64,000 nt of DNA from an uncultured Gammaproteobacteria bacterium (GTDB taxonomy: Bacteria; Pseudomonadota; Gammaproteobacteria; DRLM01), in NCBI GenBank assembly GCA_963729605.1, contig CAVSNY010000004.1, forward strand, positions 256,001 to 320,000, in the 5' to 3' direction. The notes beneath the pieces are model-generated. The model was not told the DNA's origin. It saw only the letters and a program-made list of their open reading frames with translations, and ran no database searches. Position 1 is the stretch's first letter. Every line of letters begins with the position of its first letter. Shown here in pieces: positions 18,627-55,920 of this stretch. The position numbers and the translations under genes are program-made.

Positions 18627-19230
18627 TTAACAATAAGTGGGGAAAACCACCTTCATCGGCGAAGACGTCATCAAATGTGATTTCTAAAAATGAATCACCG
18701 CGTATTTTTTGAACACGCTCTTCGTTCTCGGCGCCCTCCCCCTAGCGGAGAGGACGGCCATTATTTTGCAAGAACGCCTTCCTCCTTTTCATTCTTTCCC
18801 ACCCTGACGGCTGCGACCCCTCGCCGCACTCTCCCCGCTCGTGGAAGAAGGAATGTGTTCTGAGATTTTTTGTATTAAACAGATCAGTTTGACGACTCGG
18901 CTATTCAATCGCTCGCAGAATCGCAACAGGGCCTCAAGCCCGTTGAGGGCCCTCGGAAAAATAATCCATCGTCGTGGTTATCACGCCCGCCCCCTATTTT
19001 CAAAATCGATTTGAGGGGGTTCTGAATGCCGCTTATTATCAGCGCCTTATTTAAGCATCATCCTGCAATGAGCCCCGCGCTGCATGGTCACACCGGTTTC
19101 CGGTCTCGGTTCCGGGTGAGCGGCGGGAGCGGCGAAGAGGACTTCCCTGGCGCGCCGGGTTGGCCGGACCGGTGTGTTCACGACGGTTGCCGGCAGGGTG
19201 GGATCTCCTCCATTAAATTTACATTGAAAT

Positions 19231-45125: not shown

Positions 45126-45602
45126 TTGTTCGAGGGAGAACATTATTTGATTTTTCTAGATCAAACCAGGCGTCACCGGAAATTCTACGTTATCACTCTA
45201 TCCATCCTACTGGCGCTATTCTGCTTTCGCGTGCTAGCACAGTTGCTACAGCGTTACATCGAGATTTCTTTCTTGCCACCATTTGATGCATGGCAAAGTG
45301 GTGCCGTGCCTTACAATGCCTTATTCGCATCACAGGTGGTGATTATTGTTGTCTACGGGTGGATTCTGCGGCGTATCATGATGGATAAAATTCAACCGAG
45401 CAGCAGGCAAGGATGGATATTTCTCATCATCGGCCTGATTTATTTTTTTGTCATGGTGGCGCGCCTGTTCATTGGTTTGACCGGTCTTTCCGAACACCAC
45501 TGGTTCCATAGTTATTTGCCTACCCTGTTCCATTTTGTACTTTCGGGCTATTTAATTGCATTGGGTTATTTTCATCTCCAGGCTGCGGGGCAACGACTAT
45601 GA
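45126..45602 (+). CDS. Four-TM hypothetical membrane protein (start uncertain)
   Basis: Four hydrophobic segments with FLPPFDAWQSG and FHFVL motifs; ATGA overlap with the next gene. Confidence 0.7.
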   Translation: MFEGEHYLIFLDQTRRHRKFYVITLSILLALFCFRVLAQLLQRYIEISFLPPFDAWQSGAVPYNALFASQVVIIVVYGWILRRIMMDKIQPSSRQGWIFLIIGLIYFFVMVARLFIGLTGLSEHHWFHSYLPTLFHFVLSGYLIALGYFHLQAAGQRL

Positions 45603-48202
45603 GCTACGCGGCTTCCGCGACCCCATCAAATGCCCAGCGTCCTCTGTGGCAGGAATTTATTGCTCTGATCGCCTACCCGGCCTCGTTTTTTCTCGCTGTC
45701 GCGGCGTTTCTCTGGTTCAACGCAAACGGCTATCCGAAATGGATTAGCGCCTATCTTCCGGTGATTGTCTGCGCGGTGGTGGTATTGCCCTTGCTGGAGC
45801 GTGTTATACCGCATCGCCGCGACTGGCGGCCGGGCAGACGGGAATGGTTTACCGATGCGCTCTACACCATCGTCATACAAATCGCTATGCCGCCCCTGCT
45901 CGCACTGCTCGTGGTGCTTGGTTTGAGCGATTTTACCCAACCGTATCTGCATTCCTCCCTGTGGCCGCATCAATGGCCGATACTGGCCCAGGGCATTTTG
46001 ATGGTGCTGCTAGTTGATCTCATGCGCTATTGGTTGCATCGGTTCGCACACACCAATCCAACCCTGTGGCGATTGCACGCGGTGCACCATTCGCCCGATA
46101 AGCTTTATTGGCTCAATACGGCGCGCTTTCATCCGCTGGAGAAGACCTTGCATTTTGCATTGGACTCGATGCCGTTCATTCTTTTGGGCGTCAATGAATA
46201 CGTCCTGGCATTCTACTTCGTCTGCTACGCGGTGAACGGCTTTTACCAGCACAGCAACGTTTACCTCCGTCTAGGTCCACTCAGTTACATTTTCAGCACT
46301 GCCGAATTGCACCGCTGGCATCACTCGAAAATCGTGCGGGAAGCTAATCACAATTACAGCAACACCACGATATTCTGGGACATCGTGTTCGGTACGTATT
46401 ACCGCCCGCGTGACCACAATATGGCGCGTGCTGGCATACAAAATGATCGCTACCCGATGAGTTTCGGCCGTCAACTGCTCGGGCCCTTCATGAGAAATCT
46501 GGAAAGTCGAGACGTGTTTGTGCCCACGCTGCGCGAGGCCACGATGAATCTCCTGCTGCGGCTAGGCTTCGCGAAAATCAATCGTACGTATTGGCGCGAC
46601 CTAGAAAAGGCCACGCACGACGTTGCGGAGACGCAAAATAGGGTGTTGCGAGGAATCATGCAACAGAACCGGGAGACTGTGTTCGGCCAGCGCCACCATT
46701 TCGCCGAGGTCCTTTCCATCCCCGATTATCAACGCCTGTGTCCGGTGCAGACCTACAACAGCCTGCGCCCGTACATCGATGAGCAGGAAAGTGACAGCAA
46801 ACCTGCCATCACGGCGGAACAGGCGTTGTTTTACGCCAAGACCAGCGGCAGTACCGGCACAGCGAAACTTTTACCGGTTACGCCTACTATGGTCGCGCAA
46901 ATCAAGCACCAGCAGGCCGTGGCCGGATTTCTACAATACCGCGCCTGTCCGCGCGCATTCCTGGGTGCGTTGCTCGGCATCACGGGTGCAGTCGAGGAGG
47001 AAAGAACCGCTACTGGAAAGGTGGTCGGTGCTATCTCGGGAGTCATGTTCGAAATGCTGCCCTGGCCGATGAAACGGAAATTCATCGTGCCGTCCGTGAC
47101 GTTCTCCATCAAGGATCATCTGACGAAGTATATGTTGATTTTGCGTTTGGCGCTGGCTGAAAGAGGCATCACCTATATCGCCACCGCCAACCCGTCCACG
47201 TTCGTATTGCTGCTGGAGTTGGCGCACAAGTATCGCGACGAATTGTTGGTGGGAATTGAGACGGGACTGTGGCCCGCCGAACGCCCGCTACCTCCCGAAG
47301 TTTTCGAGGCGGTGAAGCGCAAGCTCCGGCCGGATCAGGCTAGGGCCACCGAGTTGAGGGAATTGTTCGCTGCAAAGGAACAGCTAGTGATACGGGACAT
47401 CTGGCCCCATGTTGCACTGCTGGCAACATGGACGGGGGGCAACTGCCGCATTCCACTACAGACCATCAAGGCGCAATTGCCCGAACAGACCGTTACGATG
47501 GACCTGGGTCTTATGGCGAGCGAGTGTCGCACTACGCTGGCGGTTGAAGCAGGCACTTCCTCCGGCCTGCCGGTTTTCATGGATTATTTCTTCGAGTTCG
47601 TCGAGCGTGATCGCTGGGACAATAAGAAGCCGGAATTCCTGACGCTGGACCGGCTGGAACAGGGAAAGGAGTACTACATTTTCGTCACGACTACAGCTGG
47701 ACTCTATCGTTATGACATGAACGACATTGTCATCGTGACCGGCCGCCGCCACGACGTCCCACTGATCGAGTTCCTCCAGAAGGGCCGTGGCGTGACTAAT
47801 ATCACTGGCGAGAAAATATACGAAACCCAGGTGATACAGGCCACCGCGGATACAGCGGCACAATGTTCACTGACCTTTCCGTTTTTTATCGTGCTCGCTG
47901 ATCGCTTCGCCGGATGCTATGAATTTTACTTCGAGTTGAACGGTTCATCTGCGTTGGACATCGAGGAACTAAGCCGCCTGCTCGATGAGAATCTCTGCCG
48001 TCAGAACGACGAGTACATGCAGAAACGCGCCAGTAGCCGACTTAAGCCGCTGATGGCGTGGCAGCTCAAGCCGGGGACGGCCACGAATTTCCGTACGCAC
48101 CTAGTGAAGCGCGGCCAGAAGGAAGGCCAGTTTAAGGTCCAGTGCCTGGCTTACAAGGACGAGGTCGATTTTGATTTCCATCCACAACTCATGACGGAGT
48201 AG
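45599..48202 (+). CDS. Fatty-acid hydroxylase/sterol desaturase fused to GH3 acyl-adenylate amido synthetase
   Basis: His boxes HRFAH, HAVHH, QHSN, HRWHH; GH3 motifs TSGSTGTAK, GLMASE, FFEF, GLYRYDMND, GEK. Confidence 0.88.
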   Translation: MSYAASATPSNAQRPLWQEFIALIAYPASFFLAVAAFLWFNANGYPKWISAYLPVIVCAVVVLPLLERVIPHRRDWRPGRREWFTDALYTIVIQIAMPPLLALLVVLGLSDFTQPYLHSSLWPHQWPILAQGILMVLLVDLMRYWLHRFAHTNPTLWRLHAVHHSPDKLYWLNTARFHPLEKTLHFALDSMPFILLGVNEYVLAFYFVCYAVNGFYQHSNVYLRLGPLSYIFSTAELHRWHHSKIVREANHNYSNTTIFWDIVFGTYYRPRDHNMARAGIQNDRYPMSFGRQLLGPFMRNLESRDVFVPTLREATMNLLLRLGFAKINRTYWRDLEKATHDVAETQNRVLRGIMQQNRETVFGQRHHFAEVLSIPDYQRLCPVQTYNSLRPYIDEQESDSKPAITAEQALFYAKTSGSTGTAKLLPVTPTMVAQIKHQQAVAGFLQYRACPRAFLGALLGITGAVEEERTATGKVVGAISGVMFEMLPWPMKRKFIVPSVTFSIKDHLTKYMLILRLALAERGITYIATANPSTFVLLLELAHKYRDELLVGIETGLWPAERPLPPEVFEAVKRKLRPDQARATELRELFAAKEQLVIRDIWPHVALLATWTGGNCRIPLQTIKAQLPEQTVTMDLGLMASECRTTLAVEAGTSSGLPVFMDYFFEFVERDRWDNKKPEFLTLDRLEQGKEYYIFVTTTAGLYRYDMNDIVIVTGRRHDVPLIEFLQKGRGVTNITGEKIYETQVIQATADTAAQCSLTFPFFIVLADRFAGCYEFYFELNGSSALDIEELSRLLDENLCRQNDEYMQKRASSRLKPLMAWQLKPGTATNFRTHLVKRGQKEGQFKVQCLAYKDEVDFDFHPQLMTE

Positions 48203-48209
48203 TGCGTAC

Positions 48210-49410
48210 GTGAAAATTGCGAGCCTTGACCTGGCACCGTTGCGGATTCCCTTCCGGGTATCCTTTAAGCACGCCTCAGCAGAACGTAACATCACACAGA
48301 GCTTTATGGTTATCGCCCGTTCAGAAGCAGGCTTCTTTGGTTACGGCGAAGGCTGTCCGCGCGACTATGTCACGGGCGAGACCGATGCCAGCGTTGCCGC
48401 GTTCTTCGGCAGATATCGCGATGACATCGCGGCCAAGATCGTCGGTTCGTCGAGCCTGCAGGAATGGATACGGGCCCATCAACGGGATATCGATCAAAAC
48501 CCGGCGGCATGGTGCGCGATAGAGCTGGCACTGCTCGATCTATTTGCTCGGCAAGACAATGTTCCCATGGAAATGCTGCTGGGCTTGCCGCCGCTCGCAG
48601 GACCGTTTGTTTACAGCGCCGTGCTCGGCGCCACTGACACGAAACGGTTTACCGAGATATTGGAACGCTACCGGAAGTTCGGTATGCGCGATTACAAGAT
48701 CAAGCTTTCAGGCGATGTCGACCGCGATCGCGGAAATCTTGCCGCTCTGTACTCCGCGGGCATCGTACCGGCGCAGGTGCGGGCAGATGCGAATAACCTC
48801 TGGTCCGATCTCAATGTCGCGCAAGACTATCTCAAATCCCTAGACTATCCCTTCGCCGCCATCGAAGAACCGCTCCGGCCCGGTCAGTTCGCCGATCTGG
48901 CGACGCTTGCCGACTCCCTCGCGGCCCGCATCGTGCTGGACGAAAGCATCACGCGGGAGAATCAGCTCGCGCAGTTGCCGGCACCGCCCGGTCGGTGGAT
49001 CGTCAATCTCCGGGTTTCAAAAATGGGCGGCTTGTTGCGCTCGCTCGCTGTGGCGAACCGTTGCCGCGAAATGGGGCTCGCGCTGGTTGTCGGCGCTCAG
49101 GTGGGCGAAACTAGCCTGCTCACGCGCGCAGCGCTGATTGCCGCCCTGAAAAGTTTCGGCGTTGACCTGGGCGAGCCTGCTCACGCGCGCAGCGCTGATT
49201 GTGGCGCAGGCAGCGCGCGACAGCGTGATTGCGCAGGAAGGGGCGTTCGGTACCATGTTGTTGGAATCCGATGCCGTGCAACCAATGCTCATGTTCGGCG
49301 CAAAGGGTGAGCTCGATATCCTTTCAGCGCGACTTGACCGGTCACCGGGCTTTGGTTTGACGCCGATACCGGATCTTGCTGATCGTTATCTCAAGCACGG
49401 AGTAGGCTAA
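48210..49410 (+). pseudogene. Enolase-superfamily (MLE/dipeptide epimerase-like) enzyme disrupted by a 61-bp insertion
   Basis: FKHA, GYGEG, KIK, DANN, EEP, DES, SKMGG, VGETS. Removing 61 bp joins ORF 48210 to ORF 49162-49410, giving 379 aa. Confidence 0.88.
49113..49201. repeat. Exact 28-bp direct repeat flanking a 33-bp insert (repeat-spacer-repeat)
   Basis: AGCCTGCTCACGCGCGCAGCGCTGATTG at 49113-49140 and 49174-49201; insert CCGCCCTGAAAAGTTTCGGCGTTGACCTGGGCG. Confidence 0.95.
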
Positions 49411-55294: not shown

Positions 55295-55389
55295 TCGCGC
55301 GGCGGCGCTGGATTCGGTTATTCAAAGGGCCGGCCGGAACCTGTCCCGAAATTGAAATCGATAGATGCAAACCGGACTGACGCGTCATG

Positions 55390-55920
55390 CCAACCTCTCT
55401 TCCGCGGGCGGGGGAGGGAAAGGGCGATGAATTCTGATATCTGATTTTCACCAACCCCTCGCGCGCGGGCGGGAGAGGGTGCCTGATATTGATATGCGGG
55501 ATGCAGCTAACCAACCCCTCGCGCGCGGGCGGGAGAGGGGCCTCAATCCGATGGATCGCCTGCGGTTCCTGGCAATCCCTCGTGCACGGGCGAGAGAAGG
55601 AGATATCGCGTTAATGATTTGCGCGATCGTGCAACCCCCTCTCCCGCAGGCGGGAGAGGGAGGGGGTGAGGGCGCCGGGATGACCGCCATCATTACGCAA
55701 AAACGCTTTATCTCCTCTCTATTCTTACGCGCCAACCTCGCTCTTACGCGCCGACCTCGCCACCCTGGCCATTGCGAGTCCTCCCCGCGCGCAAGGGAAC
55801 GGAGCAACCTTCGACAAGATCGAATGGGGCATCCGCGAATTCTCCCCGCGCGCAAGGGAATGGAAAAATGATTTTCCTGCGCCCGCCGCCGATTGTCCCC
55901 GCCCGCCCGCGAGAGAAGGT
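55390..55920. repeat. Array of about 8 palindromic 29-30 bp repeats at 59-61 bp period with unique spacers
   Basis: Copies of CCAACCCCTCGCGCGCGGGCGGGAGAGGG or variants at 55390, 55451, 55511, 55572, 55631; second variant at 55774 and 55835; degenerate copy near 55893. Confidence 0.85.

Follow-up and report, generated by a model that had tools for sequence, protein, structure and literature searches.

Natural insertion of a spacer-like 33-mer with a 28-bp target duplication interrupts an enolase-superfamily gene: a candidate case of off-target Cas1-Cas2 integration

In a 64,000-nt stretch of the genome of an uncultured gammaproteobacterium (hereafter, the window; G000:C4:256001-320000, where G000 is the host genome and C4 its contig CAVSNY010000004.1), a gene of the MR/MLE family (enolase superfamily) is interrupted by 61 bp that comprise a 33-nt spacer-like sequence and a second copy of a 28-bp target. 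The best reading of this insertion is a natural off-target (non-canonical) spacer integration by Cas1-Cas2 with a 28-bp ruler. As its agent we favour, with a probability of about 0.45, the Cas1-Cas2/3 of the type I-F CRISPR system residing in the same genome; both the involvement of an integrase and its identity are what we infer. Read in this way, the insertion is a new, well-polarised natural case of off-target integration, accompanied by a gene knockout and by a sister footprint of another system. The host genome is 3.48 Mb in size, was assembled into 7 contigs and is 94.5% complete.

The two 28-mers (Table 1) are 100% identical and are spaced 61 nt from start to start. The bases bordering the two copies differ on both sides, so that the exact duplication cannot be extended beyond 28 bp and leaves 33 nt of insert between the copies. 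Within the 3.48-Mb genome, the 28-mer was unique to this site when up to 6 substitutions were allowed, and the 33-mer was unique with up to 8 substitutions. An exact pair of 28-mers at a spacing of 61 nt is not to be put down to chance. The combination of a 28-bp duplication, a 33-nt insert and a 61-bp period is the geometry of type I-E adaptation. An earlier reading of the window from its letters alone (the sequence-only reading) had noted the exact duplication, its mismatched flanks and the 33 nt in between, and had cautioned that the insert begins with C on both strands; our re-measurement at 49113-49201 agreed in every respect.

Pfam searches detected MR_MLE_C (E = 1.3e-19) and MR_MLE_N (E = 2.3e-7) in the interrupted gene. 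The open reading frame (ORF) at 48210..49310 runs as ..GETSLLTRAALI and then passes through the insert out of frame, and the remaining protein is read from 49174 in a different frame. The best database homologue, P0001, is an intact protein of 379 aa; its identity over the first 310 residues is 99%, and it continues without interruption across the site (..GETSLLTRAALIVAQAARD..). Comparison by eye showed a single difference in 78 residues between the displaced C-terminal part and the C-terminus of P0001. The empty allele was also found as DNA: contigs from three of the four sequencing runs compared (X1 to X3, belonging to three studies, one of groundwater and two of wetland) omit exactly 61 nt at 98-99% identity, with 4-9 differences per ca. 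400 nt of flank. Since the 61-nt joint in these contigs can be placed anywhere over 25-28 nt, they carry one copy of the 28-mer. The X1 contig (12,696 nt) is equal in length to the longest contig on record for P0001. From the fourth run, X9, came only one contig of 296 nt, with 100% identity; as it starts at 49174, it tells nothing about the insert. No DNA match to the MR/MLE gene was obtained in the genomes of 40 relatives. Judged from these alleles, the insertion is the derived state. It is also recent, indeed very young, since the 28-mers do not differ at all and the remainder of the gene shares 99% identity with the intact orthologue. The gene is inactivated by the 61-bp frameshift. The sequence-only reading had described an insertion with a 28-bp target duplication that breaks the gene and had named orthologues lacking the insert as the comparison to be made; the uninterrupted allele in near-identical relatives, as the intact P0001 and the contigs of X1 to X3, bears this description out.

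Table 1 Features of the window related to the insertion and to other units of period 61.
Feature	Coordinates	Strand	Basis or remarks
Interrupted MR/MLE (enolase-superfamily) gene	48210..49410	+	ORFs; Pfam MR_MLE_N and MR_MLE_C; intact 379-aa orthologue P0001
Copy 1 of the 28-bp target duplication	49113..49140	+	Exact duplicate; single copy in the contigs of runs X1-X3
Spacer-like unique insert	49141..49173	+	33 nt; not found as an exact match in contigs of viruses, metagenomes or genomes
Copy 2 of the 28-bp target duplication	49174..49201	+	Exact duplicate of copy 1
Displaced C-terminal coding part	49174..49410	+	Translation; 79 residues to the stop, out of frame with the N-terminal part
Four palindrome units resembling repetitive extragenic palindromic (REP) sequences (periods 61, 60 and 61)	55389..55600	+	One unit in the congener G003; units 2 and 3 are identical 30-mers
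61-nt duplication-insertion	55781..55860	+	Exactly 61 nt longer than in G003; unique insert

Cas1 (PF01867) was found at three loci of the host genome. A complete type I-F system, consisting of Cas1f, Cas2-3f and Csy1-4, lies on the same contig ca. 134 kb upstream of the insertion; all of its genes are open frames scoring above the NCBIfam cut-offs (Cas1f, 509 bits; Cas2-3f, 1295 bits), and its adaptation module is intact. The adjoining I-F array contains 297 repeats of 28 nt, the length of the duplication in the MR/MLE gene. Its 296 spacers are 32 nt (285 spacers), 33 nt (9), 31 nt (1) and 26 nt (1) long, and the insert of 33 nt is inside this range, in a minor class (9/296). The genome also carries two arrays of 37-nt repeats: a type I-C array with 187 repeats, accompanied by Cas1c, Cas2 and Cas4, and a type III-A array with 27 repeats and a linked Cas1 and Cas2; the modal spacer length is 34 nt in both. 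These observations support very active CRISPR adaptation in this genome. Among 12 genomes of the order, Cas1 of any kind was found in only two, namely the host genome and the congener G001, which has one I-C-like Cas1. Cas1e did not exceed the cut-off in any of the 12 genomes, while the Escherichia coli positive control matched. Besides, Cse1, Cas2e, Cas6e and Cas7e gave no matches in the host genome, a weaker result because the controls for these families were positive only in Thermus. The sequence-only reading had proposed a natural off-target spacer acquisition by a type I-E system and had suggested a search for the I-E cas locus. The kind of mechanism stands, while the attribution to type I-E, as far as the assembly shows, does not: neither the genome nor the order yielded any I-E genes, and the resident system with 28-nt repeats is of type I-F.

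Eight spacer sequences are each present twice in the I-F array (G000:C4:153801-171590), several of these pairs being allelic variants of one protospacer, and the base composition of the I-F spacers shows a 3-nt periodicity, as coding targets would give. The I-C array (G000:C6:198796-213393) has one interruption of 1293 nt, possibly an inserted element.

A second footprint of the same form, independent of the first, was found at the 3' end of mgtE (G000:C7:642330-642437; L014:1831-1938), where an exact 37-bp duplication that spans the mgtE stop codon surrounds a unique 34-nt insert. In the congeners G001 and G003, a single copy of the 37-mer precedes what in the host genome comes after the second copy, and this is the empty site. 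In the resident I-C and III-A arrays, repeats are 37 nt long and spacers most often 34 nt, the same lengths as in this footprint, and the off-target period of this class, 71, equals its native mode. The mgtE footprint thus fits the systems with 37-nt repeats. Two clean and polarised events of duplication and insertion are therefore at hand, and their duplication lengths, 28 and 37 bp, are both of the repeat lengths that occur in the resident arrays. Because of this match, they provide the strongest argument that CRISPR integrases were the makers.

The insertion in the MR/MLE gene may have arisen as described below. A Cas1-Cas2-type integrase with a 28-bp ruler would carry out staggered strand transfers 28 bp apart within the coding sequence, joining a prespacer of ca. 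33 nt, probably foreign, to the target. Gap repair would then double the 28-bp target. The outcome would be a one-spacer neo-CRISPR unit of 61 bp, with the frame shifted after codon 310 and the last 69 residues lost. The likeliest agent would be the complete I-F Cas1-Cas2/3, encoded on the same contig together with its array of 28-nt repeats.

Outside the three arrays, a scan for isolated direct repeats was run with windows of 28 nt and a threshold of at least 22 matches. Eleven isolated pairs were detected at period 61, none at 59 and 62, and two at 60; every other period not divisible by 3 gave at most two pairs, and multiples of 3 gave a background of 0-7. This excess at period 61 adds more footprints of the same kind, in line with the sequence-only reading, which had named further 28+33 units in the genome as a check. 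Besides the gene event, most of the period-61 pairs are located at abundant GC-rich REP-like palindromes, and the sequences enclosed by the pairs are unique and mutually unrelated. REP cores number 273 in the host genome as compared to 93-131 in relatives. Pairs of REP cores spaced 61 nt number 11 in the host genome and 0, 0, 1, 0 and 0 in five relatives, three of which are fragmented; the spacings of the core pairs form a hump at 55-61 nt plus a spike at 61.

Two of these loci lie in the window (Table 1), and both are insertions relative to the congener G003. At 55389, units 1 and 4 diverge from units 2 and 3 far beyond the divergence of the flanks between the two genomes. At 55781, the duplication is exact over 19 nt and matches at 27 of 30 positions when its edges are included, the three mismatches all being at the inner edges, and the palindrome is present nowhere else in the genome. 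Empty sites were not found for the events at C3:215016 and C6:224654, where the intergenic regions are absent or unalignable in the congeners. An array of ca. 9 units with a period of ca. 61 is present at G000:C7:247820-248350 (L011), and it consists of diverged 28-nt REP-like repeats and 33-nt spacers. One of its spacers is composed of 6 nt and of 27 nt that agree exactly with part of a widespread type I-E repeat and have no other copy in the genome. Arrays of this I-E repeat with period 61 were seen in at least 119 stretches, and these come from many taxa. As regards a donor of this spacer, 2 of 2144 instances of the repeat share its 6-nt flank, which is the level expected by chance.

An intergenic region of ca. 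840 nt that is rich in REP-like sequences (G000:C3:214335-215172; L012:1335-2172) lies between two genes that are 3-10 nt apart in G001 and G002. Inverted REP-like doublets with a period of 99 and a conserved inner sequence are present at G000:C5:174169, C6:188737, C6:189089, C6:189438 and C7:293794; they look REPIN-like and distinct from the direct repeats of period 61. A gene for a Y1 (RAYT/IS200-like) transposase is located at G000:C7:53-415. In a REP-like unit of period 66 (G000:C3:449110-449145), the inner sequence matches the start of a gene of the same genome (C3:75015-75050) at 31 of 36 positions, with CC directly upstream, and it may be a spacer taken from the own genome or from a homologue.

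The source of the 33-mer was sought in several ways. BLAST searches against phages and plasmids gave matches at the level of chance only (best E = 0.3). Within the own genome, the best matches were 13-19 nt long with E values of 0.055 or worse, and the insert was therefore not copied from the genome. Such searches, and an inspection of the flank for a protospacer adjacent motif (PAM), had been outlined by the sequence-only reading; the searches yielded no source. An 11-mer is common to the insert and native I-F spacer 25, but 24 of 60 shuffled sequences also reached 11; a link of the insert to the native I-F spacers was accordingly set aside. Joined ends of an insertion sequence (IS), a miniature inverted-repeat transposable element and an excision footprint were rejected, as the 33-mer is unique in the genome and has no significant match among phages and plasmids; we know of no IS family that makes a 28-bp duplication. 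Tandem duplication or replication slippage was rejected since the 33 nt resemble neither the flanks nor any other part of the genome. The short self matches likewise led us to reject template switching from sequence nearby or elsewhere in the genome.

Several observations weigh against an integration by the resident I-F integrase. In the I-F array, 96% of the units have a period of 60, whereas the isolated events peak at 61, and an insert of 33 nt belongs to a 3% class of the I-F spacers. The target matches the I-F repeat at 4 of 28 positions in the forward and 5 of 28 in the reverse orientation, which is below the genomic mean of 8.2. No motif resembling a site for integration host factor (IHF) was found near the insertion, the sole match in the window being at 19037; the target thus has neither a likeness to the native leader-repeat sequence nor a nearby IHF-like site. 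The hairpin predicted for the target has an energy of -4.7 kcal/mol (z = 0.6), and 144 of 200 shuffles fold as well. Only 9% of the native I-F spacers begin with C, as the insert does on either strand. The searches gave no protospacer for the 33-mer and hence no PAM; since two of the two native I-F spacers tried also had no exact viral match, this absence says little. The insert shares a 9-nt prefix (49141-49149) with the insert at G000:C3:215046-215054, after which the two diverge. The shared 9-mer has 59 copies in the genome, only these two being beside a duplication, and the probability of such sharing by chance was estimated at ca. 0.002. The ends of the native I-F spacers showed no positional enrichment of motifs resembling this prefix. 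Among 288 distinct native spacers, six nine-nt ends are shared, five of them from four allelic pairs and one from a pair that shares only the 9 nt. Neither metagenome nor viral contigs contained an exact match to the insert at C3:215046. Besides, one period-61 REP pair is common to G003, a 75% complete genome in which no Cas1 was found, and the 61 bp in the MR/MLE gene are known from assembled sequence alone.

The last of these points also bears on the reading that the 61 bp are an artefact of assembly or sequencing and not part of the organism. All three contigs bridging the site are without the 61 bp, and no sequencing run resembled the source sample (top share of sampled words, 0.56). We nevertheless regard an artefact as very improbable: an exact 28-bp duplication around 33 unique bases is not what an artefact is expected to produce, footprints of the same form occur at other loci of the assembly and have empty sites in independent genomes, and the contigs without the 61 bp belong to other strains, at a difference of 1-2%.

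The mismatch in period would be resolved if the gene event and the other period-61 events had been made by an I-E-like Cas1-Cas2 that is absent from the assembly, either because it was recently lost or because it resides on an unbinned replicon. The lengths of 28 and 33 nt add up to exactly 61, where the genome-wide peak is, and the C7 array, with 27 nt of an I-E repeat in one of its spacers, has the same period. With its 7 contigs, the assembly is also short of completeness by a few per cent. The sequence-only reading had counted ca. 12 of 28 matches between the target and the E. coli repeat. A weak likeness of this kind persisted with the widespread I-E repeat, with which the target agrees at 13 of 28 positions in the best of four registers (P = 0.074, compared with random 28-mers of the genome); the REP-like targets reach 12-16 of 28 with the I-E repeat in the best register and at most 10 with the I-F repeat. 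These comparisons used several registers, are not significant, and appear only suggestive. Against such an agent stand the searches for I-E genes described above, negative for Cas1e throughout the order and for Cse1, Cas2e, Cas6e and Cas7e in the host, and the youth of the event, which would require that the system vanished very recently. The insert also lacks a first-position G on either strand, which the sequence-only reading had expected from an AAG PAM. On balance, we consider an I-E-like agent unlikely. Slightly less likely, in our estimation, is a process without Cas proteins, in which duplications and insertions are linked to palindromes and arise at GC-rich hairpins by template switching in replication or by an activity linked to the REP-like family and its Y1 transposase, the gene having been hit by chance. 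Such a process would suit the location of most period-61 events at REP-like palindromes, the hump of core spacings beside the spike, the pair that is older than the split from G003, and the presence of the Y1 transposase gene. It would also suit the imperfect duplication at 55781 and the strongly diverged outer units at 55389. However, no copy that could have served as donor of the inserts is present in the genome, and the gene target is outside the REP family. The 37+34 footprint at mgtE fits the geometry of another resident CRISPR class, which a single non-Cas process does not predict, and the core pairs at 61 are concentrated in the sole genome of the order with three Cas1 loci. To our knowledge, no non-Cas process gives a fixed 28-bp duplication around a unique, non-templated 33-nt insert.

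If the integrase reading is extended to the whole set of period-61 repeats, the genome may record an ongoing de novo genesis of CRISPR-like arrays, in which GC-rich palindromes, mostly REP-like but also coding, would be recurrent off-target substrates of CRISPR integrases. We put this forward as a tentative proposal. It would comprise more than 10 mini-arrays of 61-bp period, one of which would have grown from one to four units since the split from the congener, and a separate 37-bp class. The period of 61 instead of 60 would then mean either that the length of off-target prespacers differs, or that a vanished I-E-like integrase left the relic repeat as a spacer.

The gene directly upstream of the MR/MLE gene (45599-48202) encodes an 867-aa fusion of a fatty-acid-hydroxylase domain and a full GH3-family (acyl-acid amido synthetase-like) protein. 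Because the two genes are separated by only 7 nt, the knockout of the MR/MLE gene is likely to put a small pathway out of action.

Nivala, Shipman and Church (Nat Microbiol 2018) have reportedly described off-target spacer integration and the genesis of neo-CRISPRs by Cas1-Cas2. According to passages of papers that cite this study, off-target integration by Cas1-Cas2 in vivo has already been published (10.1101/148544, PMC7054753, PMC6698737, PMC11788318, PMC9456107). In one such passage, the in vivo evidence comes from the type I-E system of E. coli with overproduced Cas1-Cas2 and supplied oligonucleotides (PMC7054753); in others, earlier natural cases are termed circumstantial (10.1101/148544), and IHF-like sites are said to favour off-target events (PMC9456107). 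Our search of a limited literature collection found no paper on a natural gene knockout of this kind. The present case resembles a neo-CRISPR in its spacer-sized insert, its repeat-length duplication, its location outside the arrays and the active adaptation module of its host, and it has the potential to act both as the seed of an array and as a mutagen. Unlike the events in the E. coli experiments, it is natural, is fixed in an assembled genome and lies inside a coding gene whose empty allele is demonstrated; besides, its host has I-F, I-C and III-A systems and not I-E, and the target lacks both a likeness to the resident repeat and a nearby IHF-like site.

Compared with canonical I-F adaptation, in which Cas1-Cas2/3 adds 32-nt spacers between 28-nt repeats, the case shares the 28-bp duplication and occurs in a genome that has a complete resident system with a very large array, but its insert is 33 and not 32 nt long and begins with C, and the site has no leader, repeat-like sequence or IHF site. 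The new repeat, being unlike the I-F repeat, would escape processing by Cas6f. Canonical I-E adaptation has the same period of 61 and the same split into 28 and 33, and a relic I-E repeat is present elsewhere in the host genome; unlike there, I-E cas genes were not found in the genome or the order, and the insert does not have G at its first position. There is also a resemblance to REP or REPIN sequences and their RAYT transposases, in that most of the sister events are at abundant GC-rich palindromes and the genome has a Y1 transposase gene and doublets of period 99. In contrast to REPINs, the units of period 61 are direct repeats with unique and unrelated inner sequences, and the gene target is not a member of the REP family.

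Knowledge of off-target spacer integration stems mainly from E. coli overproducing Cas1-Cas2. A polarised natural case, with an empty allele, an inactivated gene and the footprint of a second system, offers a direct view of insertional mutagenesis as a cost of CRISPR adaptation, and it shows a possible start of new arrays. The mismatch between the 61-bp events and the I-F geometry, together with the clustering at REP-like sequences, could reveal how an integrase recognises its target without a leader. If the genesis of arrays proposed above is true, CRISPR integrases would help to multiply a REP-like family and would act as insertional mutagens in nature.

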